The notes under the pieces were generated by a model. It did no database searches. It saw nothing but the letters and a program-made list of their open reading frames with translations, and had not been told where the DNA came from. From an uncultured Bacteroidaceae bacterium (GTDB taxonomy: Bacteria > Bacteroidota > Bacteroidia > Bacteroidales > GCA-2748055): DNA of 62,274 nucleotides. The position numbers and the translations under genes were made by a program. The DNA lies in contig CAZNFR010000010.1 in NCBI GenBank assembly GCA_964572225.1, forward strand, positions 1 through 62,274. The letters are read 5' to 3'. Below are positions 42,830 to 61,330 of this stretch, in pieces (position 1 is the first letter of the stretch; each line of letters begins with the position of its first letter).

Positions 42830-42929
42830 TTAACCCTGATGGTTAAACCATCTCAATCTGAGATGGTATTATCCCCGCCCCAATACCTCCCTCTTAGTCC
42901 CGGGGGAGGTATACGGGACGGAGATATAC
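42830..42929 (-). other. Three consecutive hairpins in lon 3' region
   Basis: ~24-bp GC-rich stem (42866-42929), 9-bp stem (42847-42867), 6-bp stem (42830-42846). Confidence 0.6.
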
Positions 42930-45382
42930 TAGTTGATTTTAAGGGGTTTTTTTACCTTTTCCTTTAACAAAGCCTTTTCAAGTACTTGCATAATATTGTC
43001 CACATAATGGAAATTCAGACCTTGTCTGTAAATGTCTTTTATTTCCAATACATCTTTTTCGTTTTCCCTGGACATTATGATATCCCTGATACCGGCCCTG
43101 CGGGCAGCCAGTATTTTTTCCTTGATTCCGCCAACCGGCAATAGTTTACCCCGAAGTGTGATTTCACCGGTCATGGCAAGGTTTTGCCTGACTTTTCTTT
43201 GTGTAAAGGCTGAAGCGATGGAAGAGATCATGGTAATACCGGCAGATGGTCCGTCTTTCGGAATGGCACCTTCAGGAATGTGAATATGTACATTCCAGTT
43301 GCTGAAAACTTCGGGTTCGAGAGCCAGCAGACCCGAATGAGATTTCAGATACTCCAACGCGATCACTGCCGATTCTTTCATAACATCACCCAGGTTACCC
43401 GTTAAAGTCAGATTTCCTTTTCCTTTACTTAGACTTGTTTCGACAAAAAGGATTTCCCCCCCAACTGCAGTCCATGCAAGTCCGGTCACAACTCCGGCTG
43501 TCTGGTTGTCTTCATATCTGTCTTTGGTAAATCTGGGAACCCCGAGAATTTCCTGAATTGCATTGGTATCAATGCTTCCCGGAAAGCTGTCTTCGAATGC
43601 CAGCTTTTTCGCCACTGATCTGGCTATTTTTGCAATCTGTTTATCCAATTGCCGAACTCCGGATTCCCGTGTATAGGACTCAACGATCTTTTCAAGGCTG
43701 CGTTTGGGGAACTTTAGTTGAGACTTTTTAAGGCCATGATTTTCGAGTTGTTTAGGGATAAGGTGTTTTTTTGCAATTTCTACCTTTTCCTCAACCAGAT
43801 ATCCGGTTACATCAATTACCTCCATCCTGTCTAGAAGAGCAGGGTGGATGGACCCGGTTGTATTTGCCGTAGCCACAAACATAACTCTGGACAGGTCAAA
43901 ATCAAGCTCCAGGTAATTATCGTGAAAATTTGAATTTTGTTCCGGATCTAAAACCTCCAGCAGAGCCGAAGCTGGATCCCCATGGAGGTCGCGTCCAACC
44001 TTATCAATCTCATCCAGAACAAAAACCGGATTTGCGGATTTGGCTTTTTTAAGATTTTGGATGATTCGTCCCGGCATTGCACCTATATAGGTTTTTCTGT
44101 GTCCCCTTATTTCTGCCTCATCATGAAGTCCGCCAAGAGAAACACGCACATATTTTCGATTTAATGCCGAAGCGATGGATTTTCCGAGCGATGTTTTTCC
44201 AACCCCCGGGGGACCTACCAAACATAGGATCGGAGATTTCATATCCCCTTTTAGTTTTAGTACTGCCAGATGTTCCAGTATTCTCTCTTTTACCTTCTCA
44301 AGACCGAAGTGATCCCTGTCCAGGATTTTCTCTGCCCGTTTAAGGTTGAAATTATCTTTGGTATATTCATTCCAGGGCACATCCAGCAGAGTCTGAATAT
44401 AATTTATCTGCACAGAATACTCGCCTGTTGCAGGATTTAGGCGAAGAAGTTTATCGAGTTCCTTCTGGAAATACCCATCAACTTCCTTGCTCCAATTCTT
44501 TTTTTCTGCCCTTTTTCTATATTCATTTATCTCCTGTTCCATGGGATTTCCACCCAGCTCGTCCTGAATGGTTTTCATTTGCTGGTGAAGAAGGTATTCA
44601 CGCTGCTGCTGATCAAGGTCATGCTTTACTTTTGACTGTATATCATTTTTTAGTTCCAGCATTTGTACTTCCTTGGAAAGGTATTCAAGCAATCTGATCC
44701 CCCTTTGCCGTAAATTATCTATTTCCAGCAATTTTTGTTTGTCTGCATGGGGCATGTCATTATTGGAAGAAAGAAAATTAATAAGGAAAGACGGACTTTC
44801 GATATTCTTGACTGCAAATGTCGCCTCAGGTGGAATATTGGAAGATAGTTTGATAATTTTCATCGAAAGGTCCTTTAATGAACCTATGATGGCATTTAAT
44901 TCATCCCGGTTATCGGGCATAAGATCTTCCAATACTTCAATTCTTGCAACCAGATAAGGCTTGTCCGATACCAGCTCATCTATCTCAAATCTTTTTTTTC
45001 CCTGGATAATAACCGAAGTTGATCCATCAGGCATTTCGAGAATCTTAAGTATTTGAGCTACAGTTCCTTTCCGGAAAAGGTCTGCAACATCCGGATCTTC
45101 CTGATCCGGATCCTTTTGAGCAATTGCCCCCAGTATTTTATTTTTCTGATAAACCTCATTAATGAGTTTCAGAGATTTTTCCCTGCCCACTGTAATGGGA
45201 ATAACCACACCCGGAAAAAGAACTGTATTCTTTAAGGGTAAGATCGGTAGAATATCCGGGACATTTATACTTATGGAATCATCCGTTTCATCACTGGATA
45301 AAATGGGAATGAATTCTGCCTCTTCATCAACTCTCTCTGCGGAAAAAAAATTTCTGAATTCCAATTTTTCGTCTTTTTTCAT
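42929..45382 (-). CDS. lon: Endopeptidase La (Lon)
   Basis: LON N-domain, [23 protein letters not shown] catalytic Ser, GGIKEK. Confidence 0.98.
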
Positions 45383-45454
45383 AAATGATCAATCTACTGA
45401 CAAATAGTCCGACTTATGGCAAATTGATTGCCTTTTATACTTCGCCTATCAAGG

Positions 45455-45470
45455 GTCAACTCCTGTGCCA
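45455..45470 (-). promoter_or_regulatory. Putative sigma54 (-24/-12) promoter upstream of lon
   Basis: Minus strand TGGCACA-GGAG-TTGAC, ~70 nt upstream of ATG. Confidence 0.55.
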
Positions 45471-45493
45471 AAGTTGGGATATATCCCCGGGTT

Positions 45494-49950: not shown

Positions 49951-50700
49951 TTAATTCCTGCTGGAAAGCTTGGATAGAAGCCTAAGGAATTCGATATATA
50001 ACCAGATTAGGGTTACCATCAATCCAAAGGCACCGTACCATTCCATATATTTTGGTGCACCCGATTGGGAGCCTCTTTCGATAAAATCAAAATCCAGAAT
50101 GAGATTCAAGGCTGCAACGACAATTACTACCAGGCTGATCAATATGCCCACCGGGCCATTGCTGTGAATAAAACCAATATTAATTCCGAAAAGAGATAAT
50201 ACAAAAGACATCAGATATACCAGTGCAATTCCACCCGTTGCCGCAAAAACACCCAAACGAAATTTTTGGGTTACTTTAATCATACCTGTACGGTAAATAA
50301 ATAATAAGGCAAAGGTAGTTCCGAAGGTAAGCGCCACCGCATTGACCACGATCCCAGGATATTGTGCATTAAAAACGGCAGAAATTCCGCCCAGGAATAG
50401 CCCCTGCAATACAGCATATATTGGAGCAGTATAAGGAGAAAGATTCATCCTGAAAACCGTTACCAGTGCAGTTATAAATCCCCCAATCCCCCCTACAAGC
50501 ATGTAGGTCTGAAGGGCGGCAGTATTTCCTTCACCCATAAAGCTCCAGGTATAGGATGCCGCTACAACTACCAGCAAGAGCATTAAAAAAACTTTGTTTA
50601 CCGTTCCCCGAATCGTCATCACTCCGCTCCCGGAATCTGTCGAAACCCTGGAAAAGATGCTATTATTTAAAACCGGGTTTGCTGATCTGCTAATGTTCAT
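49951..50700 (-). CDS. Bax inhibitor-1/YccA-family membrane protein
   Basis: MT..GTVNK, LDFDFIE.G...GAPKYMEWY.AFGL.VTL.WLY.E; start 50700. Confidence 0.88.
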   Translation of the reverse strand: MNISRSANPVLNNSIFSRVSTDSGSGVMTIRGTVNKVFLMLLLVVVAASYTWSFMGEGNTAALQTYMLVGGIGGFITALVTVFRMNLSPYTAPIYAVLQGLFLGGISAVFNAQYPGIVVNAVALTFGTTFALLFIYRTGMIKVTQKFRLGVFAATGGIALVYLMSFVLSLFGINIGFIHSNGPVGILISLVVIVVAALNLILDFDFIERGSQSGAPKYMEWYGAFGLMVTLIWLYIEFLRLLSKLSSRN

Positions 50701-50878
50701 TGTTAAAAGTTTATGTTTCAAATATAGGATAATTCATATTACCTATACCTGTCAAATTGCATACCACTGCTTTTTAACAGTAAAATTGGCAAGCAGAGGG
50801 AATCAAACATTTTTTGGTTTAAACTAAATGAAGAACGAATATATTTTGTTTTTTTGTACAACTTGAAGCCGCCTGATC

Positions 50879-52987: not shown

Positions 52988-54193
52988 TTGAAGAAAGAAA
53001 GGATAAAAATACTGGTATTGCCTTCATGGTACCTGCCCGATGGAGGAGGGTTCTTTAAGGACCATGCAGAAGCTCTGAATCATGGGGACTTTACTGTTGA
53101 TGTTTTGGTTAACAGAGTCCTGGGGCTTACAAGTCACTCTCTATATCAGATCAGGTCCTCCAGAAAGTTCAGGGAGTCCATCGAAGGTCCACTGAAAATA
53201 TACAGGTCAGGTTATCTGAAGTGGCCCTTTTTGGAAAAAACCAACTTAAAAGGCTGGGTAAAGCGTTATCTTGATATTTACAATGAGTACCTGGAAAGAA
53301 ACGGTCCTCCGGATATTATCATTGCACATAGTACGATCTGGGCAGGTTACGTGGCTGCAATCCTTAAGGATGAGTTTGGGATTCCTTTCATTCTGATTGA
53401 ACACAGGAGCCGTTTTGCACGAAATGTTCAGGCAGCACAAAAGATGATCCGTGAATGGTATTTTCCTTTTCTGCGCACCACTCTGGTTAAAGCCGACAGG
53501 ATTGTAACGGTAAGTCCGGCATTGGACAACCAGCTAATCGGAATATCTCCGGGGATAAAGAACAAGATCCTGACCATTCCCAATCTTATTGATACCGATT
53601 TTTTCTCACTTCCCCCGGTTAAGAGGGAAATAGAACCTTTTATTATAATTTCCTTTGGAATTCTGGAATACGTGAAGGGATTTGATATTCTGATTAAAGC
53701 TTTTTCCAGGCTTGTTCATAAATATGACCGGGAATTTTTTCTCCGAATCGGAGGAAGAGGAAAAGATTTTAAAAAACTGAAGGCTATTGCAAAACAAGAA
53801 GGGGTTTCGGACCGGGTTAAATTGCATGGATACGTTCCGAGAGAGGAAGTCAAAAGAGAAATGCAGTTAGCCAATTTATTTGTTCTTCCCAGCAGATTTG
53901 AAGCATTCGGAGTGGTGCTTATCGAAGCAATGGCGACAGGATGCCCCGTAATTTCCACACATTCAGGGGGGCCTCCCCACATTGTTAAAGAAACCGACGG
54001 AATACTTGTAAAACCCGATGATGTTGATGAACTTGCAAATGCCATGGAAAGGGTTTATCTTGATTATGATAAATACGATCCTTTGCAGATCAGGAAAGAT
54101 GTGGTTGACAATTATGCCACCAGCGTTATCCGGGATAGTTATCATCAATTGGTCAGAGAGGTTCTGGATGGAAAAAGTTCAGCTAAAAAATAA
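52988..54193 (+). CDS. Glycosyltransferase family 4 (GT-B)
   Basis: KGFDILIKAF, FVLPSRFEAFGVVLIEAMATGCPVI. Confidence 0.92.
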   Translation: MKKERIKILVLPSWYLPDGGGFFKDHAEALNHGDFTVDVLVNRVLGLTSHSLYQIRSSRKFRESIEGPLKIYRSGYLKWPFLEKTNLKGWVKRYLDIYNEYLERNGPPDIIIAHSTIWAGYVAAILKDEFGIPFILIEHRSRFARNVQAAQKMIREWYFPFLRTTLVKADRIVTVSPALDNQLIGISPGIKNKILTIPNLIDTDFFSLPPVKREIEPFIIISFGILEYVKGFDILIKAFSRLVHKYDREFFLRIGGRGKDFKKLKAIAKQEGVSDRVKLHGYVPREEVKREMQLANLFVLPSRFEAFGVVLIEAMATGCPVISTHSGGPPHIVKETDGILVKPDDVDELANAMERVYLDYDKYDPLQIRKDVVDNYATSVIRDSYHQLVREVLDGKSSAKK

Positions 54194-55763
54194 CAGGGCC
54201 TTCCCCTGGGTCCGAAAAAATGGATTGTCTGTCAAAGGCTATTTATTTGACCGATCCGGCACCTATTTTGAAGAAGAAGGGTTACTAGAGTATTTCAAGG
54301 GAACTCATTCTTATCTCGATCTAAAGGAAAAGGTCAAATACGCCAATGGATGCTTCGCCATTGTCATTGATCATGATTCTTATCTCCTTGCAGCTACCGA
54401 TATGATCAGATCCATTCCCCTCTTTTATGGACTTTCTGGTAAAGACTGGGTGGTAAGCGATAATGCTGAAATGTTGGCAGAGCTTACCGGATACAAACTC
54501 AATGATCTGGCTTCTACAGAATTTCTTGCTACCGGATATGTAACGGGCAGGGAAACCCTGGTGGAAGGTATTTTTCAGGTTGAGGCCGGTCAGATTATCA
54601 AGCTCACTAAGGAAGATATTGTCAGAGAGTTTTATTACACATTCCGTGTTAATGATGAGTCTGAAGAGGAGTATAAGGATCTGAAAGCAGCAGGGATTAA
54701 GATTTTTGATCAGGCTTTTCAAAGACTGGTGAAAAGTCTGAAAAACCGTACAGCCGTTATCCCTCTGAGTGGTGGATTCGACTCCCGGCTCATTGCCACC
54801 ATCCTCAGAAAATTGAATTATGAGAAAGTAATTTGTTTCACCTATGGGAGAGCATCCAGTCCCGAGATTCCAGTTTCCCAGGAAGTTGCAGACAAACTTG
54901 GATTTGAATGGCATTTTTTGGAATATACCGATGAGTTGATCCGGGATTATATACATCATGATGATTTCAAAGAATATTTTGGCCATGCCTCAAATTTGGT
55001 TTCCATGTTTTTTATGCAGGAATTTTTTGCAGTAAGGGAAATGAAGAAAAGGAATATTATACCTGCAGACTCCATATTTATACCCGGCCATAGTGGTGAT
55101 TTTCTTGGTGGAAGTCAGCTGAACAAACACGGAAATCTCAGTATGGAAGAATCAGTTGCAGATCTTGCCGACCGAATCTACAGAGTAAAGTACTGCTACA
55201 AAAAACCCGGGGGGAAAGATGCTTCTCGTATTCTCGAAAGAGTTCAGAAAAGCCTTCAGGAGAAATTTTTACGGCAGGGTGATTTTGCCTATTCCATTCA
55301 TGAAGACTGGGACTTCAAGGAAAAACTGGCGAAATTTAATTTTAACTCGGTATCTACCTATACCTGGTTTGGATATCAATACCGCCTTCCTTATTGGGAC
55401 AGAAATCTGGTAGAGTTCTTTCGCTTTTTACCTTTGCATGCGAAAATTCATAAATATCTTTATGATGATATTCTGACAAATGAGTTCTTTGCGCCTTTCA
55501 ATCTGAACTTTACAGATGAACTGCAGGCAGATGAAAGAGACCTCAGAAAGTTAAAAATCAGATCGAGAATAAAAGAAAATCTGCCCGAAGCAATCAACCG
55601 GACTTTTATATCCAAAAAGGACCTTCTGTTCTATAAGGAAATCACCGACTACCTGGTTTTGGACCTAAAATCCGAAGGTGTGAAAGCGAGGATTTACGGG
55701 AATGCATACAACTCTCTGATTATTCAATGGTATCTCCATCAGGTCAAAAAAAGATGCCGGTAA
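54168..55763 (+). CDS. Asparagine synthase-like amidotransferase (glycan-associated)
   Basis: NGCFA, D.IRSIPLFY, PLSGGFDSR PP-loop, PGHSGD; likely start 54168. Confidence 0.8.
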   Translation: MEKVQLKNNRAFPWVRKNGLSVKGYLFDRSGTYFEEEGLLEYFKGTHSYLDLKEKVKYANGCFAIVIDHDSYLLAATDMIRSIPLFYGLSGKDWVVSDNAEMLAELTGYKLNDLASTEFLATGYVTGRETLVEGIFQVEAGQIIKLTKEDIVREFYYTFRVNDESEEEYKDLKAAGIKIFDQAFQRLVKSLKNRTAVIPLSGGFDSRLIATILRKLNYEKVICFTYGRASSPEIPVSQEVADKLGFEWHFLEYTDELIRDYIHHDDFKEYFGHASNLVSMFFMQEFFAVREMKKRNIIPADSIFIPGHSGDFLGGSQLNKHGNLSMEESVADLADRIYRVKYCYKKPGGKDASRILERVQKSLQEKFLRQGDFAYSIHEDWDFKEKLAKFNFNSVSTYTWFGYQYRLPYWDRNLVEFFRFLPLHAKIHKYLYDDILTNEFFAPFNLNFTDELQADERDLRKLKIRSRIKENLPEAINRTFISKKDLLFYKEITDYLVLDLKSEGVKARIYGNAYNSLIIQWYLHQVKKRCR

Positions 55764-55847: not shown

Positions 55848-55922
55848 GGTGGATGTAGCTCAGTAGGTTAGAGCGCTGGATTGTGGTTCCAGAGGTCGCC
55901 GGTTCGAACCCGGTCTTCCACC
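55848..55922 (+). tRNA. tRNA-His (GTG)
   Basis: Cloverleaf: G-1, acceptor GTGGATG/CTTCCAC (one T-T mismatch), anticodon arm CTGGA-TTGTGGT-TCCAG, GGTTCGAAC T-loop, C73; full CCA not encoded. Confidence 0.95.
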
Positions 55923-55923
55923 C

Positions 55924-55956
55924 AAAAAAAAAGAGGATCTCACGACCCCCTTTTTT
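55924..55956. terminator. Bidirectional terminator between tRNA-His and convergent gene
   Basis: Minus strand aagggggtc-GTGA-gatcctctt with T-run; A/T runs on both sides. Confidence 0.75.
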
Positions 55957-55988
55957 CTCTGTAACTAACTATTTATAAACCTAAAAGC

Positions 55989-56348
55989 CTAATTTATTTC
56001 TGTCATCCATGTTTCTAACTGCAACTCATTTTCCTGAAACTCAAAATTGATTACTGAAAAATGAAGCATCCAGTCTTCAAACTGTAATTCCTTGTCAAAA
56101 TTCATTATCTCTTCTTCAGATCTGTTTTCGCTCTCCATGAAACTGGCCTGAGACATCATCCATGATTCGAAAGTCATTTCGTTTTCAAAACCTGTATCAA
56201 ACTCGGCAATAACCATCATCCATTGTTCAAGCCTCATGTCCGGATGAAGATCTTTTTCGGTTTTATCTGTATATCCACTGGCGTAGCTGAAGCTGATGCC
56301 GGATAAGGCGATTATTAATGCTGTTAAGGTAAATTTTATCGTTTTCAT
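55989..56348 (-). CDS. Secreted acidic E-x-W-M repeat protein, paralog 1
   Basis: Signal peptide (..FSYA); 4 repeats LEQWMM, FESWMM, FEDWML, LETWM; paralog at 58269-58697. Confidence 0.8.
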   Translation of the reverse strand: MKTIKFTLTALIIALSGISFSYASGYTDKTEKDLHPDMRLEQWMMVIAEFDTGFENEMTFESWMMSQASFMESENRSEEEIMNFDKELQFEDWMLHFSVINFEFQENELQLETWMTEIN

Positions 56349-56381
56349 GATTTTTTATTCTATGGTATTTGCTCAAACTCT

Positions 56382-56502
56382 TACATAACTTGTGCCATAA
56401 ATTACAAATAACACATAATCAATAATATATGATGAGTTTAATTGAGTGTTAAGGTGTGTTAAAATTGGTCGCTTTTGAGACAGTTGTGTCCGAAACCGAA
56501 CG
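56382..56502 (-). promoter_or_regulatory. Putative sigma54 promoter plus upstream activator block, copy 1
   Basis: Minus strand TGGCACA-AGTT-ATGTA (56397-56382); 46-bp block 56457-56502 shared with copy 2. Confidence 0.65.
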
Positions 56503-56536
56503 AATATAATGCGAATTGGGTGGATGGGTAAGAAGA

Positions 56537-58075
56537 TTAATTTATGTCAGGTCCGTTATTTTTCATGACCTTGTATATATCTGATCTTCGGTCTTTTAAA
56601 TTTCTGACGCTTCCAAATTGGTTGAGTTCCCTCAGAAGATCAATATCCACATCCGCAATTAGGATCATTTCTGTGTTAGGGGTAGCTTCAGCTTTGATCC
56701 CATTTGTTGGGAATTGAAAATCGCAAGGGGTAAAAACCATGGATTGAGCATATTGAATGTCCATATTGTGGACTTTGGGCAGGTTTCCGACACTTCCTGC
56801 AATGGCAACGTAACATTCATTCTCAATGGCTCTTGCCTGGGCACAGTTTCTAACACGCGAATACCCGTTCTGGGTATCAGTCAGAAAAGGTACGAAGAGG
56901 ATATCCATGCCTTCATCCGATAGAAGACGGCTAACCTCCGGGAACTCAATATCGTAACAAATCAGAATTCCAATTCTCCCACAATCGGTATCGTATGTTT
57001 TCAGGGTAGATCCTCCCTGTAGGCCCCAGACCTTTACTTCATCCGGAGTTACATGCAATTTCTCGAAGCGTTCTATTCCCCCTCCTCTCTTACATAAATA
57101 TCCAGCGTTAAAAAGTTTTTCGTTTATTACTTCCGGCATACTTCCGGTTATTATGTTTATATTATAGGAAACAGCCAGCTCAGCAAATCTGGATACAATA
57201 TTGGTGGTATGTTTGGCAAGCTCCCGGATAGCCTCGGATTCGGAAAGATGATTATTTTCAGCCATAAGGGGAGCATTGAAAAATTCCGGAAACAACGCAA
57301 AGTCCGCACGGTAACCCGAGACAGCATCAATAAAATACTCTGCTTGTTGCATTACCTCGTCAAAGCTCTTATAGAGCCTCATTTGCCATTGGATTAGTCC
57401 GAGTCTGACCACAGTTTTTTTCAGGGAAGCTCTGGTAGATGGTTTTTCATAGTAGACATTGTCCCACTTAAGAAGGACAGCATACTCCTGAGACTCCTTA
57501 TCACCCTCAAGATACCCTTTAAGTATTCTTGTGGGATGAAAATCATTGGACATCTGAAAATCAAGTACGGGATCATGGATCTCCTTTCTTCTTACTTTTG
57601 CAATGTAATCCCTGGGTGTAAGCTCAGAAGAGTATTTGTGGTAATTCGGAATCCTGCCGCCGAAAACAATTCCTTTGAGATTCAGACGCTCACATAGTTC
57701 TTTTCGGTAATCATATAATCTTCGGCCCAATCTCAGACCCCTGAATTTAGGTCTGATAAAAATGTCAATCCCGTAAAGAATATCCCCCTCAGAACTGTGA
57801 GTATTAAATGTATATTGTCCGGTGATCTCCTTGTATGTATGCTTATTATCAAATTTTTCGTAGTCGACAATGATACATAAGGCACAACCCGCAAATTCAT
57901 TATTAACCTTTATATAAACCTGACCTTCGGGGAAATTATTTATCAGGGTTTCAATGTGTTTTTCTTTCCAAAAGGCTTGCGGCATGCCTGAATAGGACTC
58001 CACCATAGCTTCCTTTAATTCAAGGTAGTTTTCCGGTTTCAGGTACTCAAGCTGAATGTTATCAATTTCCTTCAT
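56537..58075 (-). CDS. Bifunctional GNAT acetyltransferase / carbon-nitrogen hydrolase
   Basis: FPEGQ, FRGLRLGRRLY acetyl-CoA motif; nitrilase triad FPEF, KLH, LICYD. Confidence 0.9.
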   Translation of the reverse strand: MKEIDNIQLEYLKPENYLELKEAMVESYSGMPQAFWKEKHIETLINNFPEGQVYIKVNNEFAGCALCIIVDYEKFDNKHTYKEITGQYTFNTHSSEGDILYGIDIFIRPKFRGLRLGRRLYDYRKELCERLNLKGIVFGGRIPNYHKYSSELTPRDYIAKVRRKEIHDPVLDFQMSNDFHPTRILKGYLEGDKESQEYAVLLKWDNVYYEKPSTRASLKKTVVRLGLIQWQMRLYKSFDEVMQQAEYFIDAVSGYRADFALFPEFFNAPLMAENNHLSESEAIRELAKHTTNIVSRFAELAVSYNINIITGSMPEVINEKLFNAGYLCKRGGGIERFEKLHVTPDEVKVWGLQGGSTLKTYDTDCGRIGILICYDIEFPEVSRLLSDEGMDILFVPFLTDTQNGYSRVRNCAQARAIENECYVAIAGSVGNLPKVHNMDIQYAQSMVFTPCDFQFPTNGIKAEATPNTEMILIADVDIDLLRELNQFGSVRNLKDRRSDIYKVMKNNGPDIN

Positions 58076-58200
58076 ATTATCCTGTTCTTTGACCCAAAGC
58101 TAACTAAAACCAAAGGGTTTATCAACCTGATTCAAATAGTCACATACTGCCTCTTTGCCTTTCCTGGATTAATTCCCTAAATACCAGCCTGCAAAAATGA

Positions 58201-58237
58201 AAGAAAGAGTTTCCCCGGGATGGGTAAACTCTTTCTT
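58201..58237. terminator. Terminator hairpin downstream of paralog 2
   Basis: aagaaagagttt / aaactctttctt 12-bp inverted repeat. Confidence 0.7.
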
Positions 58238-58268
58238 TACTAACCACTTAAACCTAAAAAAGAAAACT

Positions 58269-58697
58269 TTATTTGATTTCAAACATCCAAGCTTCGAATG
58301 TTAATTCTTCTTCCTGAAAGCTATCAGCCGTTGGAAAGGTTTCCATCATCCAACCTTCCAACTGAAGATCACTTTCTGTGAAAGTGTTATCTATGATAAT
58401 AATTTCTGACATCCAGTCCTCCATCTGCATTTCATCTCTTGTAAAGCTCTCTTCATGCATCATCCAGCTCTCGAGGTTCATCTCGTTTTCAGCAAATGCT
58501 TCTGAGGAAAGAAATTCTGAAACTTCCATCATCCAGTTCTCGAGATTCAATTCCCTGTCTAATTTATCAAGGATCATTTCAGTTGCTTTTTTATCTTTCT
58601 TTTCTTTTTTACTTCCTTTGGTTCCATCTGCATATGCATTGGGTCCTACAACTACTAAAATGATTGCGAATATTATGGTTGAAACTATGTTTTTCAT
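58269..58697 (-). CDS. Secreted acidic E-x-W-M repeat protein, paralog 2
   Basis: Signal peptide (..NAYA); 5 repeats LENWMM, LESWMM, MEDWMS, LEGWMM, FEAWMF. Confidence 0.8.
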   Translation of the reverse strand: MKNIVSTIIFAIILVVVGPNAYADGTKGSKKEKKDKKATEMILDKLDRELNLENWMMEVSEFLSSEAFAENEMNLESWMMHEESFTRDEMQMEDWMSEIIIIDNTFTESDLQLEGWMMETFPTADSFQEEELTFEAWMFEIK

Positions 58698-58736
58698 GAC
58701 TTCTTATTTTTTGTCGTTCAAGTTCAGTGCTTTTAT

Positions 58737-58856
58737 TACAGAGTACGTGCCAAAAATCATAAAATATTAAAAATCAACTGTATATAATCTTGAATTGGAA
58801 TTTTTACCCATGTTAAAACTGAACGCTTTTGTAACAGGTGTGTCCGAAAGTGAACG
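58737..58856 (-). promoter_or_regulatory. Putative sigma54 promoter plus upstream activator block, copy 2
   Basis: Minus strand TGGCACG-TACT-CTGTA (58752-58737); 46-bp block 58811-58856. Confidence 0.65.
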
Positions 58857-59008
58857 TTATTCCTAATTGTCTGGGTATTCTTTTCGGGTTTTAAATCCAA
58901 GCTATATTTAACATTCATTAAACATGGTTGGAACATAATATTCAATATTTTGGTAGTCATTTACTTATCTTGTAATCATAATTCAAAACCTTACTCACAT
59001 CCTTTAAC

Positions 59009-60132
59009 ATGAGAAACCTTAACACCGCCTTTATTTTGATCCTCCTGGCAATTCTTTCCTTTAATACATCCTATTCTCAAAATATCTGGACCGGCGAAAG
59101 CATTCTATTTACCAAGTCTAATTATTCAGACTGAACTCAGGCAGAGAATCAGGATAGAATTACAGAAGAGGTCTGGTTAACCCGTGGTAACAGTCGACCC
59201 ATTTTTAATGCATTTGTCGATGACCTTGAAGAAAGCCCGGTGGGCACTCTTTGGGCCGTTGGAAGTATTTCAGATGGAGTTGAATCCCTTGACTTCAATT
59301 CATGGGCCCCTGCGGTTGGATTCGAACCTCCCTATTCTGTGGGAACGGCAATGGTACTTTACCTGATTCAAGAGATTATTTATTTAGACATAACATTTAC
59401 CAGTTAGACATCCGGGGAAGGAAGTGGAGGGGGTGGCTTTAGCTATACCCTTTCCACAGGCTCTGTTTCCGATTAGTTCTGGACCGGTCCTGCAACCACA
59501 TTTACAAAACAAAATAATGCCGACTGGACCCTTGCGGAGAATCAGGACAGGATTACTGAGAATGTCTGGATTACCCGTGCAGATTCTCAGAGTATTTTTA
59601 ACATTGCAAAACGTTCAGAATTCTTTTTTTCCTCTTTGGTACCCAGTAATACTGAATGGGCATTCGGAAAAACCTCAGATGGTATTGAAAACCTGGATTT
59701 CCATTATTTCCTTGAGACAGTTGAGGTTAACCCACCTTCCGTAGTAGATCAGGATATGGTTCTGAAGATAATTCCTAAGGATATATATATTGATATTAAA
59801 TTCACCTCATGGACTTCAGGAGACGAAGGCGGAGGTGGTGGATTTTCCTATATCCGGTCAACCAACCCTTTTCCTGCAGGAACAGATCTGAATAATTCCA
59901 TGGGAGAATTAGTTGTTTATCCGAATCCTGCTTCCCGGTATGTTCATTTCAGAAAATCATTTTCCGGAAACCAGATACTATTGGAATTGTACGATTCAAG
60001 TGGTTCTCTCGTTTTGAAAAGGGCCATCAAATCTGATGAGTCCATACCTGTAGATCAATTAAACAGCGGGATGTATTTTACAGGGTCCTTGACCAAACCC
60101 ATGTATACCAGGGAAAGGTGGTCTTAAAATAA
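59009..60132 (+). pseudogene. Disrupted T9SS cargo gene with two tandem ~130-aa domains and type A CTD
   Basis: ATG 59009 with signal peptide; in-frame stops TGA 59132, TAG 59405, TAG 59474; 1-nt frameshift near 60076-60079 in the CTD (restored tail YRVLDQTHVYQGKVVLK, TAA 60130-60132). Confidence 0.85.
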
Positions 60133-60205: not shown

Positions 60206-60667
60206 CTATTCGGATCTGTTCCCGTTCTCGCGTGTCCAGGTTGTTTCCCTACCCATAAACCTCATTCCCATCACGAAACCTTTAATTTTCAGGGTATTGT
60301 AATCTCCATTCTCAAACCACATGAAGCAATCATAGGTCTTGCCACTTTCAGGATCATAGATGGTTCCGTTTTCCCACTCATTATCTTTTTCATCATATTC
60401 AAATCCTTTCAGCAGAAGAAGATCCATAAGTGTTCTGTCACGTAACTCCTCGTCGGGATTTTCCTTATCTTTTTTTGGTGCCCCATTCTCATTGGGTTCC
60501 TCAAGCCAAACGATCTTACCATAATAGTTACCGTTATTGGCGCGGTAAATCCAAACCTGGGAGGTGCCTTTTTCAGTAAGCCAGTACCCTCTTACCTTAT
60601 CAGCATCCTGAGAGAAGGCACTCGAGGTAAAAAAAATGATTAGCAGTGAAAAGAGAACTTTTTTCAT
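60206..60667 (-). CDS. DUF2147 domain exported protein
   Basis: Signal peptide, G.W.T, GKIVWL, D.ENPD..LR.R, W.NG.IYDPESGKTY, GRETTWTR. Confidence 0.88.
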   Translation of the reverse strand: MKKVLFSLLIIFFTSSAFSQDADKVRGYWLTEKGTSQVWIYRANNGNYYGKIVWLEEPNENGAPKKDKENPDEELRDRTLMDLLLLKGFEYDEKDNEWENGTIYDPESGKTYDCFMWFENGDYNTLKIKGFVMGMRFMGRETTWTRENGNRSE

Positions 60668-60823: not shown

Positions 60824-61330
60824 CTATTTTCTTTCATAGATGATAAATGAGTGAGCGAAGTCATTTCCATCACCTGCCGGAAATCTTTCCCGGTGAATCT
60901 CATTCCATTCATCATAATTGATCTCCGGAAAGAAAGTATCGGCAACAAAAGAACTATGAACCCGGGTGAGAAATATCTTACGCGCATGGGGAATAAACTG
61001 TTTATATACCATTCCTCCTCCAATGACGAACGCCTCCTCATGATCATCAATACTTGCCAAAGCTTCTTCAATGGAATAAGCCATTTCGCAATTCTCAAAT
61101 TTTTCTCCGAGCCAATCACTAATGACTACATTTTTTCTTCCGGGTAAGGGCCCATTGGGCAGGGACTCAAAAGTTTTTCTTCCCATGATAATGGTATTAC
61201 CCATCGTGATCTTACGAAATCGTTTAAGATCATCGGAAATATGCCATAAAAGCTTATTATTAAGGCCAATGGCATTATTTTCGGCAACTGCGACGATTAT
61301 GGAAATGTTTTTATTTACAGGTGTTCGCAT
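60824..61330 (-). CDS. folA: Dihydrofolate reductase
   Basis: IVAVAENNAIG, W...DLKRF, MGRKTFES, PLPGR.N, VIGGG, DTFFP. Confidence 0.95.
   Translation of the reverse strand: MRTPVNKNISIIVAVAENNAIGLNNKLLWHISDDLKRFRKITMGNTIIMGRKTFESLPNGPLPGRKNVVISDWLGEKFENCEMAYSIEEALASIDDHEEAFVIGGGMVYKQFIPHARKIFLTRVHSSFVADTFFPEINYDEWNEIHRERFPAGDGNDFAHSFIIYERK

Follow-up and report, generated by a model that had tools for sequence, protein, structure and literature searches.

Two small genes in the 62,274-nucleotide window (the whole stretch of DNA that was analysed) encode exported proteins in which a short motif, E-x-W-M, recurs along the chain, and they raise the question of what such chains do and what switches their production on. 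The original prediction described two signal-peptide genes of 119 and 142 codons with four and five repeats, respectively, located on either side of a GNAT-nitrilase gene near tRNA-His, each equipped with its own terminator, and having in common a promoter architecture and a 3' motif. This layout is borne out (Table 1). Both open reading frames (ORFs), here denoted ExWM1 and ExWM2, are present as claimed; the coordinates and Pfam agree on the intervening gene; TGGCAC-N5-CTGT and TGGCAC-N5-ATGT promoters with an upstream element in common precede ExWM2 and ExWM1; the 3' motif is exact behind ExWM2 and a diverged variant behind ExWM1; and folding places a hairpin and a U-run behind each gene.

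Table 1. Features of the ExWM locus in the window.
Feature	Position	Strand	Description
tRNA-His	55849-55923	(+)	
ExWM1 terminator hairpin	55924..55959	(-)	abuts tRNA-His 3' end
Diverged 3' motif copy	55964..55983	(-)	TAGGTTTATAAATAGTTAGT; ExWM1 3'UTR
ExWM1 CDS	55989..56348	(-)	119 aa; signal peptide SYA|SG; 4x E.WM
ExWM1 sigma54-type -24/-12 promoter	56383..56397	(-)	TGGCAC-AAGTT-ATGT, 49 nt before ATG
ExWM1 enhancer (UAS)	56459..56503	(-)	GTTCG-N4-CGGAC palindrome, then CGACCA; PWM 44.9 bits
GNAT + CN_hydrolase (carbon-nitrogen hydrolase) gene	56537..58075	(-)	Pfam; between ExWM1 and ExWM2
ExWM2/sRNA intrinsic terminator	58193..58238	(-)	11+3 bp hairpin and U-run
18-nt single-stranded RNA motif	58239..58256	(-)	TAGGTTTAAGTGGTTAGT; ExWM2 3'UTR, 12 nt after stop; proposed sRNA seed
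ExWM2 CDS	58269..58697	(-)	142 aa; Sec signal peptide AYA|DG; 5x E.WM
ExWM2 sigma54-type -24/-12 promoter	58738..58752	(-)	TGGCAC-GTACT-CTGT, 55 nt before ATG
ExWM2 enhancer (UAS)	58813..58857	(-)	GTTCA-N4-CGGAC imperfect palindrome, CACCTGT, CGTTCA-NN-TTT; PWM 50.8 bits
DUF2147 gene	60206-60667	(-)	synteny anchor of the ExWM/sRNA locus in other genera
DHFR gene	60824-61330	(-)	synteny anchor of the ExWM/sRNA locus in other genera

ExWM1 and ExWM2 are 42% identical, and the ExWM2 repeat takes the form hydrophobic-x-hydrophobic-E-x-W-M. Only 3 of the 19,429 stop-to-stop frames of at least 60 aa in the whole genome contain two or more E.WM motifs, namely ExWM1, ExWM2 and a third paralog on contig C22, which excludes chance as the origin of the repeats. 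The C22 paralog had escaped the original prediction. Each ExWM gene is a monocistronic unit of its own; the two terminators, both overlooked by a simple terminator scan but visible on folding, have energies of -22.7 kcal/mol (z -2.7) and -20.4 kcal/mol (z -3.7). Conserved synteny of the ExWM loci is of two types, DHFR-DUF2147 or rsmI-HAD-dnaB, and ExWM2 is, judging by this gene order, the positional ortholog of the DHFR-DUF2147-linked ExWM/sRNA locus. The GNAT-nitrilase gene, which had been linked to the pair, lies outside the conserved synteny and is a bystander.

The repeats define a protein family that has so far gone without a name. Its motif, E-x-x-[LIMV]-x-[LIVF]-E-x-W-M-x-x-x-F-x-[FW], spans about 16 residues and occurs in 2-10 copies. 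A profile search recovered 439 cluster representatives at E <= 1e-3, and at least two repeats are present in 151/151 retrieved proteins. No Pfam family matches ExWM1 or ExWM2 at E <= 0.1, nothing in NCBIfam rises above noise, matches in the ESM Atlas consist only of 'hypothetical protein' clusters of Bacteroidota, and literature searches retrieved no description of the family, its motif or the small RNA discussed below. The original idea that the two genes represent a genuine family of exported repeats, as yet without a name, is supported. The proteins are present in 23/24 genomes of the same taxonomic family versus 1/16 from other families of the order, and, outside the family, a single one of 300 other genomes of the class yields a match at E <= 1e-6. 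A search for related loci located five in named Bacteroidales or Prolixibacteraceae MAGs, three of which carry the strict enhancer-promoter pattern.

The motif was said to be retained while the spacers diverge, implying selection on the motif. Over 586 repeats from the 151 family proteins, E at position -2 is kept in 99%, W in 100% and M in 99%, with the reservation that, the repeats having been picked with [ED].W[ML], the E, W and M/L are partly imposed, the preferences for M over L and for E over D being free of this constraint. The chains are strongly acidic, with a net charge of -0.15 per residue. AlphaFold2, run with a 44-sequence alignment, returned a model with a pLDDT of 68 and a pTM of 0.24, consisting of the signal-peptide helix, an N-terminal helix (residues 37-49) and otherwise only a four-residue turn at each W-M. 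By sequence and structure prediction, the ExWM proteins are thus a lineage-restricted, unnamed family of Sec-exported, acidic, intrinsically disordered repeat proteins. E, W and M are all but invariant, which speaks for a specific ligand and against generic electrostatic trapping, and such conservation in a secreted chain that is predicted to be disordered points to a ligand in the periplasm or on the surface.

The promoters conform to a general pattern, TGGCAC-N5-NTGN, that is found at every ExWM copy. Upstream of the promoter lies a tripartite enhancer, in which a GTNCG-N4-CGNAC palindrome is joined by CGTTCA. The distance between the two is fixed for ExWM2, and the ExWM1 promoter starts 104 nt after the start of the palindrome; across 22/22 collected loci, the CGNAC half-site stands 93-96 nt (about nine helical turns) from TGGCA, the spacing being constant within 1-3 nt. 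The composite enhancer-promoter pattern has 62 matches in 26/41 genomes and none in a reversed-pattern control, and at about 20 loci of other genera the predicted sigma54-type promoter and enhancer are conserved. Within its own genome, the element TTCG[GT]ACAC..CTGT occurs exactly three times, once upstream of each ExWM gene, and the three ExWM genes alone score above 44 bits on the enhancer position weight matrix (PWM). One further site, C3:36749-36787, which precedes a gene for a 363-aa secreted protein without a Pfam family, reaches 26 bits, and was rejected as a member of the regulon for want of the fixed promoter spacing. The genome encodes RpoN (one Sigma54_DBD match) and a set of enhancer-binding proteins comprising 8 full Sigma54_activat genes and 3 weaker matches. 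The -12 element, NTG[T/A/C], keeps the G but not the C of the canonical TTGC. We infer that transcription of the ExWM genes is sigma54-dependent; the sequencing runs listed for this sequence are three DNA runs from a single study.

Which activator would bind the enhancer? A check of neighbourhoods for sigma54 two-component systems had been recommended, and the palindrome, with its spacing, recurs beside one such system on contig C8. This locus codes for HK, REC-AAA-HTH_8, HlyD, ABC_tran and OEP proteins, with the MFP-ABC ATPase-TolC operon divergent from the genes for the histidine kinase (HK) and the NtrC-type activator. In 14 genomes, G000 among them, the composite pattern lies between the activator and the MFP gene, and, in G000, only C8 and the ExWM genes have the palindrome with a promoter at +103/104. 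This enhancer link between the ExWM genes and an efflux two-component system is absent from the original prediction. The distribution of the C8 kinase and activator tracks the ExWM family: among related genomes, which are not independent samples, activator orthologs of at least 76% identity are present in 21/24 family genomes as well as G034 and G031, and missing from G008, G009 and G019. G019 lacks the activator, ExWM, the enhancer pattern and the RNA motif alike. There are exceptions in both directions, in that ExWM genes and the sRNA occur in G009 (89% complete), where no C8-type activator was detected, and G031 has the activator and no ExWM. Furthermore, the third half-site differs systematically (CGTTCA at ExWM genes vs CG[GA]ACA at the pump), so that a paralogous activator could be responsible for the ExWM genes. 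On balance, the activator is probably the C8 NtrC-type response regulator, paired with a putatively intramembrane-sensing kinase. Further activator types fared as follows: C13, C68 and C18 were rejected by their distribution; C73 is universal and, judged from the sequence ends only, seems to end shortly after the AAA+ domain; and at the C44 and C1 loci the enhancers differ.

The 3' motif appears to be more than a shared oddity of two genes. In this genome it is found in the two ExWM 3'UTRs and nowhere else; elsewhere, TAGGTTTAAGTGGTTAGT followed by a terminator occurs about once per genome. It is present in 20/24 family genomes, with at most one mismatch in 19 related genomes and two mismatches in the G006 copy, which likewise lies in an ExWM 3'UTR. 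The motif loci comprise 10 ExWM 3'UTRs, 11 stand-alone copies located 61-89 nt downstream of a promoter, and 1 ambiguous case, and 7/7 stand-alone loci examined are located behind DUF2147. Roughly half of the related genera lack the coding part at this orthologous locus, where DHFR-DUF2147 is followed only by a predicted sRNA of about 100 nt driven by a sigma54-type promoter. In the consensus fold, the motif stays unpaired, directly in front of the terminator, and its 18 nt are invariant across genera in which the ExWM proteins have fallen to 26-54% identity. Rfam contains no match to the sRNA. The unpaired motif, the ORF-less orthologous loci and a complementarity described in the next paragraph indicate that ExWM2 is probably a dual-function mRNA, the 3'UTR of which would act as a repressing sRNA, whereas the ExWM1 copy of the motif is, by its sequence, decayed. 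The coexistence of "ORF + sRNA" and "sRNA only" forms provides a natural experiment on the interconversion of 3'UTR-encoded and stand-alone sRNAs. That the 3' motif may be an sRNA module, the CpxQ-like half of the CpxP analogy, had been missed in the original prediction.

The one target family found for the motif is that of X, a conserved 155-aa secreted protein encoded on contig C75, to the ribosome-binding region of which the motif is complementary. X ranks best among 2,872 5' regions, at -28.6 kcal/mol, compared with -25.9 for the best of 10 shuffled-seed scans; for the diverged ExWM1 motif there is no standout target in the same set, and X ranks 1937 of 2,872. Among X orthologs, the 5'UTR shows this complementarity in 7/7 motif-bearing genomes tested and in G012 (0-2/200 shuffles as good), and lacks it in 3/3 motif-less genomes (32-46/200 shuffles as good). 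X is present in just 9/24 family genomes and is therefore not the only or universal target of the sRNA. No Pfam family and no PDB entry at E <= 1e-3 match X; its AlphaFold2 model is confident (pLDDT 87), and a complex prediction for mature X with ExWM2 residues 45-142 yielded no verdict (score 0.00). The same data could be read differently, with the motif as a cis element of this locus (for example, one that is recognised by an RNA-binding protein or acts as a stabiliser) and the complementarity to X fortuitous or secondary. This fits a single standout target that came from one genome scan, and the fact that most family genomes that keep the motif have no X, but we consider it unlikely. ORF-less stand-alone versions persist at the orthologous locus in 11 genomes, and a cis element would have nothing to act on there, which is difficult to account for; the complementarity is conserved in X orthologs and missing where the motif is missing; and, while the motif stayed invariant, the protein upstream of it did not.

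These elements can be joined in a single explanation, to which we give an about even chance of being correct: a disordered family under the control of sigma54 and C8, acting as a multivalent binder or decoy, with an sRNA from the ExWM2 3'UTR acting on X. Sigma54 and the C8 NtrC-type regulator would switch on the ExWM genes, and the same palindrome, at the same distance, would drive the regulator's divergent MFP-ABC ATPase-TolC efflux operon; the common palindrome and distance suggest that the ExWM proteins and a MacAB-TolC-like pump would be induced together in a response to envelope or toxic-compound stress. In the weakest step, the chain, whether it stays in the periplasm or is exported by the pump, would serve as a multivalent binder or decoy through E-x-W-M; its likeliest ligands would be toxic peptides of a cationic, amphipathic kind or a protein of the envelope. 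The sRNA would repress X at the ribosome-binding region. From sequence alone, the locus would form part of a compact system consisting of a kinase and activator, a fixed-geometry enhancer, a pump, the ExWM family, an sRNA and its predicted target.

For the biochemical role of the ExWM proteins, we infer a multivalent periplasmic binder or decoy, or else a cargo of the pump. The latter reading, in which the proteins are delivered by Sec and expelled by the co-regulated MacAB-TolC-like pump to become a surface coat, an adhesin partner or an extracellular trap, strikes us as improbable. Small proteins delivered by Sec, the enterotoxin STII among them, are exported by MacB-type pumps, and the ExWM proteins are small, Sec-dependent and predicted to be unfolded, and have the enhancer palindrome and spacing in common with the MFP-ABC-TolC operon; moreover, one relative, the single such protein from a search for longer relatives, combines five ExWM repeats with a fasciclin domain, a typically extracellular module. 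Against this stand the C8 operon, which contains no FtsX/MacB permease gene, the differing third half-site, and the scattered ExWM genes, which never adjoin the pump. Of the originally proposed multivalent short-motif inhibitor, the multivalent motif fits the AlphaFold2 model, in which locally confident motif turns punctuate a disordered chain, but the part that envisaged CpxP/ZraP-like feedback on a sensor is not supported: residues ~8-52 of the candidate C8 kinase form two hydrophobic TM helices with a loop of about five residues (NTETF), and there is therefore no periplasmic domain to bind.

Two further roles, both raised originally, fit the data poorly. The invariant Met (99%, not Leu), beside Trp and two residues after the invariant Glu, together with a mature-chain composition of 16% Glu, 5.2% Met and 4.2% Trp, could suit a periplasmic sponge with Glu, Met and Trp as ligands of cations such as Cu(I)/Ag(I), or an oxidant sink based on Met. 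This seems quite improbable given that family proteins have one invariant Met per ~22 residues, with His at 0.8% and Cys at 0.4%; neither the conserved neighbourhoods nor the linked regulon, an ABC efflux system and not a metal system, includes metal-resistance or Msr genes; a metal-sensing domain in the periplasm is missing from the candidate kinase; and there is no Pfam match to metal-binding families. It is extremely improbable that the proteins are multi-core precursors whose repeats would be excised, perhaps with modification, to yield signalling or antimicrobial peptides, even though a core motif repeats between more variable spacers and radical-SAM/SPASM genes adjoin three relatives (L014, L028 and L032). 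Two of these three genes are convergent and none belongs to the conserved syntenies (DHFR-DUF2147; rsmI-dnaB), the neighbours in which were checked for modifying enzymes and include none; a Sec signal peptide bearing an AXA site would be unusual in a precursor that is modified in the cytoplasm under the guidance of a leader, and no conserved cleavage sites flank the repeats.

The preferred reading, that of a co-regulated binder or decoy with an sRNA, has a close counterpart in cpxP/CpxQ of Enterobacteria, where the 3'UTR of a stress-induced gene for a periplasmic protein gives rise to a repressing sRNA. ExWM2 is likewise a monocistronic, putatively stress-regulated gene and would combine a small exported protein with a 3'-end RNA that has an unpaired seed beside the terminator, the predicted target again being the ribosome-binding region of an exported protein. 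There is, however, no sequence or family relationship: ExWM proteins are without any Pfam match and therefore have no match to the CpxP/Spy family (LTxxQ-type domain), and AlphaFold2 predicts them to be disordered, whereas CpxP is helical. In place of CpxR/sigma70, ExWM2 has a sigma54-type promoter and an NtrC-type enhancer, and in 11 related genomes the ORF is gone and only the predicted sRNA is left. The Bacteroidales host lineage, unlike the hosts of cpxP/CpxQ, is not known to have Hfq. One may tentatively, and with low probability, go further and see in ExWM2 an independently evolved, cpxP/CpxQ-like, dual-output sigma54 gene with an optional ORF, in which a protein that jams or traps something at the envelope, such as toxic cationic peptides, or a TonB-box-like decoy, is paired with an sRNA repressing an exported protein of novel fold; the decoy option is included because one carrier genome places a free, secreted TonB C-terminal domain under this same module.

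Other known systems resemble parts of this arrangement. ZraP/ZraSR and further envelope-stress outputs that depend on sigma54 similarly have a small periplasmic protein, a two-component NtrC-family activator and sigma54 (putative for ExWM), but ExWM proteins lack metal-binding or LTxxQ features and any Pfam match, the C8 kinase has no periplasmic sensor, and the co-regulated genes encode an ABC efflux system. In peptide-detoxification modules of the Bce and MacAB types, as at C8, a kinase with two TM helices and a minimal loop adjoins MFP, ABC ATPase and TolC-like genes; the C8 response regulator, however, is a sigma54 activator and not OmpR-type, and the putative C8 regulon adds scattered secreted-repeat genes and an sRNA, which are not described there. 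The periplasmic metal binders of the SilE/PcoE type are, like ExWM proteins, small, secreted and disordered, with short repeated Met-containing motifs, whereas ExWM proteins have no His-Met motifs, little His, no sequence match and no metal-resistance context.

The regulatory RNAs and sigma54 regulons of Bacteroidota are poorly charted, and the enhancer spacing of about nine helical turns, which several activator paralogs have in common, offers a useful rule for the annotation of such regulons in genomes of this kind. Relaxed promoters of the same type, TGGYAY-N5-TTGA, precede dnaK, groES, htpG, lon and other genes in this genome, which fits the sigma54 control of chaperones in Bacteroidota described in PMC12316311.

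The ORF listing bears out the original prediction of two signal-peptide genes (119 and 142 aa, with 4 or 5 copies of an E-x-W-M motif), which we denote ExWM1 and ExWM2, and Pfam places the GNAT-nitrilase gene that they were said to flank between them. A search of the same assembly revealed a third paralog on contig C22, with 3 repeats in 147 aa counted from the likely start. Across the genome, two or more E.WM occur in only 3 of 19,429 stop-to-stop frames of 60 aa or longer, and these are the three ExWM genes; the repetition thus greatly exceeds what chance would produce.

Coordinates of the main features in the window and of the predicted sRNA target X on contig C75 of the same genome
Feature	Position	Strand	Description	Source
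ExWM1	55989-56348	minus	119 aa, 4 E-x-W-M copies, acidic chain, N-terminal signal peptide ending SYA|SG	ORF listing
ExWM2	58269-58697	minus	142 aa, 5 E-x-W-M copies, acidic chain, N-terminal signal peptide ending AYA|DG	ORF listing
GNAT + carbon-nitrogen-hydrolase gene	between ExWM1 and ExWM2			Pfam
tRNA-His	55849-55923			
TGGYAY-N5-TTGA promoter	45383-45480		upstream of lon (42929-45382, minus)	
TGGYAY-N5-TTGA promoter	50701-50770		upstream of yccA-like gene (49951-50700, minus)	
X	C75:14645-15112 (L097:1501-1965)		conserved 155-aa secreted protein, predicted sRNA target	

The surroundings of these genes include a group-1 glycosyltransferase and an asparagine-synthase-like amidotransferase (52988-55763, plus strand) immediately ahead of tRNA-His, which close a polysaccharide-biosynthesis-type cluster and bear no relation to the ExWM finding. 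Between a DUF2147 gene and ExWM2 lies a gene (59009-60127, plus strand) that combines a signal peptide and two internal repeats with a T9SS C-terminal sorting domain (Por_Secre_tail); it is broken across several frames, reflecting either a pseudogene or assembly frameshifts, and nothing is found at that place in relatives.

A word-indexed search returned a single relative of the ExWM proteins, and an exhaustive profile search of 1.84 billion representatives returned 439 at E<=1e-3 and 45 at E<=1e-10. All 151 retrieved proteins (150 listed and P0001) contain at least two E.WM, mostly 3-6, with a spacing of mostly 18-24 residues. The logo of 586 repeats reads E(-8, 76%)-x-x-[LIMV]-x-[LIVF]-E(99%)-x-W-M(99%)-[TLM]-[DENS]-x-F-x-[FW]. 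The selection pattern partly dictated the E, W and M/L in it; the preferences for M over L and for E over D did not stem from that pattern. The chains contain little His or Cys and carry a net charge of -0.15 per residue. Named relatives come from Bacteroidales and Prolixibacteraceae MAGs. Matches are present in 23 of the 24 genomes of the same taxonomic family, usually several per genome, in only 1 of 16 genomes from the other families of the order and, at E<=1e-6, in a single one of 300 further genomes drawn from across the class. The original prediction recognized no named family, and none emerged: neither ExWM1 nor ExWM2 matched Pfam or NCBIfam, scans of long relatives (22 against Pfam, 8 against NCBIfam) gave nothing above noise, and no account of the family, of its motif or of the sRNA discussed below turned up in Pfam, NCBIfam, Rfam, the Atlas or our literature searches.

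AlphaFold2 modeling with a 44-sequence alignment gave no fold (pLDDT 68, pTM 0.24). Apart from a 4-residue turn at each W-M, the model contains only the signal-peptide helix and one N-terminal helix, and local confidence rises around the motifs. We read ExWM proteins as disordered chains displaying short linear motifs. The sole fused form found, the 319-aa metagenome protein P0154, combines five ExWM repeats with a C-terminal fasciclin domain.

All three copies share an upstream architecture. TGGCAC-N5-[AC]TGT is located 49-61 nt ahead of the ATG in each (3 of 3), and a shared upstream element occurs in its strict form, TTCG[GT]ACAC..CTGT, exactly three times in the genome, upstream of the ExWM copies; promoter and element both recur in about 20 loci of other genera. 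This enhancer reads GTNCG-N4-CGNACAC-N3-TGT-N6-7-CGTTCA-NN-TTT, and its distance to the promoter is constant within 1-3 nt across all 22 collected loci, the 93-96 nt from CGNAC to TGGCA amounting to what would be about nine helical turns. When the genome was scanned with a PWM derived from these enhancer sites, only the three ExWM genes scored above 44 bits, the next site reaching 26 bits. The composite GTNCG-N4-CGNAC-N88-91-TGGCAY-N6-TG matched 62 times in 26 of the 41 related genomes, and the reversed control not at all. Outside the main family, the same module precedes two other small secreted proteins: one that combines a signal peptide with a TonB C-terminal domain (Pfam 7.6e-11; L062, G034:C2, ATG at locus position 1645) and one of 157 aa that contains KYKAPV repeats and matches no Pfam family (L064, G031:C10). 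A weaker enhancer-like palindrome, TTTCGTACA-N4-TGTTACAAA (PWM 26 bits), at C3:36749-36787 (L033:3750-3788) of the window's own genome precedes a 363-aa secreted protein without a Pfam family and lacks the fixed promoter spacing.

Of the predicted sigma54 promoter architecture, all copies have the TGGCAC-N5, and they share the enhancer; their -12 element lacks the canonical C. The genome encodes rpoN, eight full activator genes and 3 weaker matches. Sigma54-dependent transcription of ExWM is an inference that we consider well supported, because the same relaxed -12 occurs in TGGYAY-N5-TTGA ahead of dnaK, groES, htpG, two hsp20 genes, lon, trx and trxB, in line with a report on sigma54 and chaperone genes in Bacteroidota (PMC12316311). 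Besides those ahead of lon and the yccA-like gene in the window, promoters of this form lie on contigs C8, C72, C56, C58, C6 and C74 of the same genome. Unlike the ExWM genes, the chaperone and trx genes have upstream TGTCA/TGACA repeats, which are not evident ahead of lon or the yccA-like gene; the TGGYAY-N5-TTGA genes resemble a distinct heat-shock/redox regulon of sigma54 type, served by an enhancer of its own. About 2 kb from groES, C72 also carries an activator gene.

The composite pattern also matches the intergenic region beside one activator gene, in the window's own genome and in 13 others. Contig C8 carries genes for a histidine kinase and a REC-AAA-HTH_8 activator on one strand and, divergently, genes for an HlyD-family membrane-fusion protein, an ABC ATPase and a TolC-like outer-membrane protein, together with one for a 181-aa protein. 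Only about 5 residues separate the two N-terminal hydrophobic helices of the kinase, which therefore has no periplasmic sensor domain. Within this genome, the palindrome with a promoter at +103/104 occurs only at the C8 operon and the ExWM genes, ExWM2 being missed by the strict palindrome pattern owing to GTTCA in its first half-site; other activator loci carry different enhancers. Orthologs of the C8 activator (at least 76% identity) are present in 21 of the 24 family genomes and in G034 and G031, and were not found in G008, G009 and G019. G019 also lacks ExWM, the composite pattern and the RNA motif, and G008 lacks pattern and RNA motif and has a single doubtful ExWM match. The exceptions to co-occurrence are G009 (89% complete), with ExWM and the sRNA and no detected activator, and G031, with the activator and no ExWM. 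On these comparative grounds, the C8 NtrC-type regulator is the likely activator of ExWM. Conceivably, a paralogous activator drives ExWM instead, since the third half-site is CGTTCA in the ExWM enhancer vs CG[GA]ACA in the pump enhancer. Three other activators were ruled out as the ExWM regulator by their distribution across genomes. In other genomes, FtsX/MacB-like permease genes are driven by related enhancers with the same spacing (GTCCG-N4-CGNAC, about 9 turns). Kinase-activator pairs also adjoin FtsX/MacB-like permease genes at C44:24550-24760 and C1:7190-7445 of the window's own genome, with enhancers of their own, that on C44 being TGTTCA-N5-TGAACA with a canonical TGGCCC-N5-TTGCA promoter.

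Assuming control by the C8 regulator, ExWM expression would be tied to a MacAB-TolC-like pump and an intramembrane-sensing kinase, a link that hints at a response to membrane-active or toxic compounds. A polyanionic, disordered and multivalent chain would fit a binder or decoy; the main alternative is that ExWM proteins are cargo of the pump. Other roles originally envisaged have lost ground: a metal sponge, given the scarcity of His and Cys and a linked regulon of ABC efflux; feedback on a sensor, given the architecture of the candidate kinase; and a peptide precursor, the conserved neighbors being DHFR-DUF2147 or rsmI-dnaB and not modifying enzymes. Radical-SAM genes (one with a SPASM domain) adjoin ExWM genes in the relatives L014, L028 and L032, convergently in two, which is probably coincidental synteny.

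Four composite-pattern matches have no downstream ORF, just a stretch of about 100 nt ending in TAGGTTTAAGTGGTTAGT and a terminator; this is the very 3' motif noted as shared by both window genes. In this genome it is confined to two ExWM 3' UTRs, the copy behind ExWM2 being exact and that behind ExWM1 having diverged, with an insertion of 2 nt. It occurs in 20 of the 24 family genomes, about once per genome: 10 loci are ExWM 3' UTRs (11-42 nt past the stop), 11 stand alone behind a sigma54-type promoter that lies 61-89 nt upstream, and 1 further locus is ambiguous. Stand-alone loci follow DUF2147 in 7 of 7 cases examined and DHFR in 4 of 7, the synteny of ExWM2 and its orthologs; the locus is therefore orthologous, with an optional ORF. 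RNAalifold predicted the terminator alone, leaving the invariant stretch unpaired, and Rfam gave no match. We regard the motif as a putative sRNA module, resembling CpxQ in being a 3' UTR sRNA. The parts are of known kinds, namely sigma54 with NtrC-type control and a 3' UTR sRNA; what is new, as far as our searches reach, is their combination, the host phylum and the orthologous locus at which the ORF is optional.

When the 31-nt motif region was run against 2,872 of the genome's 5' regions, one outlier emerged, X, at -28.6 kcal/mol (next best, -23.7; best of ten shuffled-seed scans, -25.9), the predicted pairing spanning its ribosome-binding region. The diverged motif of ExWM1 had no standout target in the genome. 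X orthologs occur in 12 of the 41 genomes. Complementarity between their 5' UTRs and the motif holds in G012 and in all 7 tested genomes that bear the motif (0-2 of 200 shuffles did as well), with a perfect 14-nt match in G004, and is absent from the 3 of 3 lacking the motif (32-46 of 200), a comparison that left out L105, in which no start was found. X matches no Pfam family. AlphaFold2 models it confidently as an alpha/beta protein (pLDDT 87, pTM 0.76) with no PDB fold match at E<=1e-3, and it may represent a new fold.
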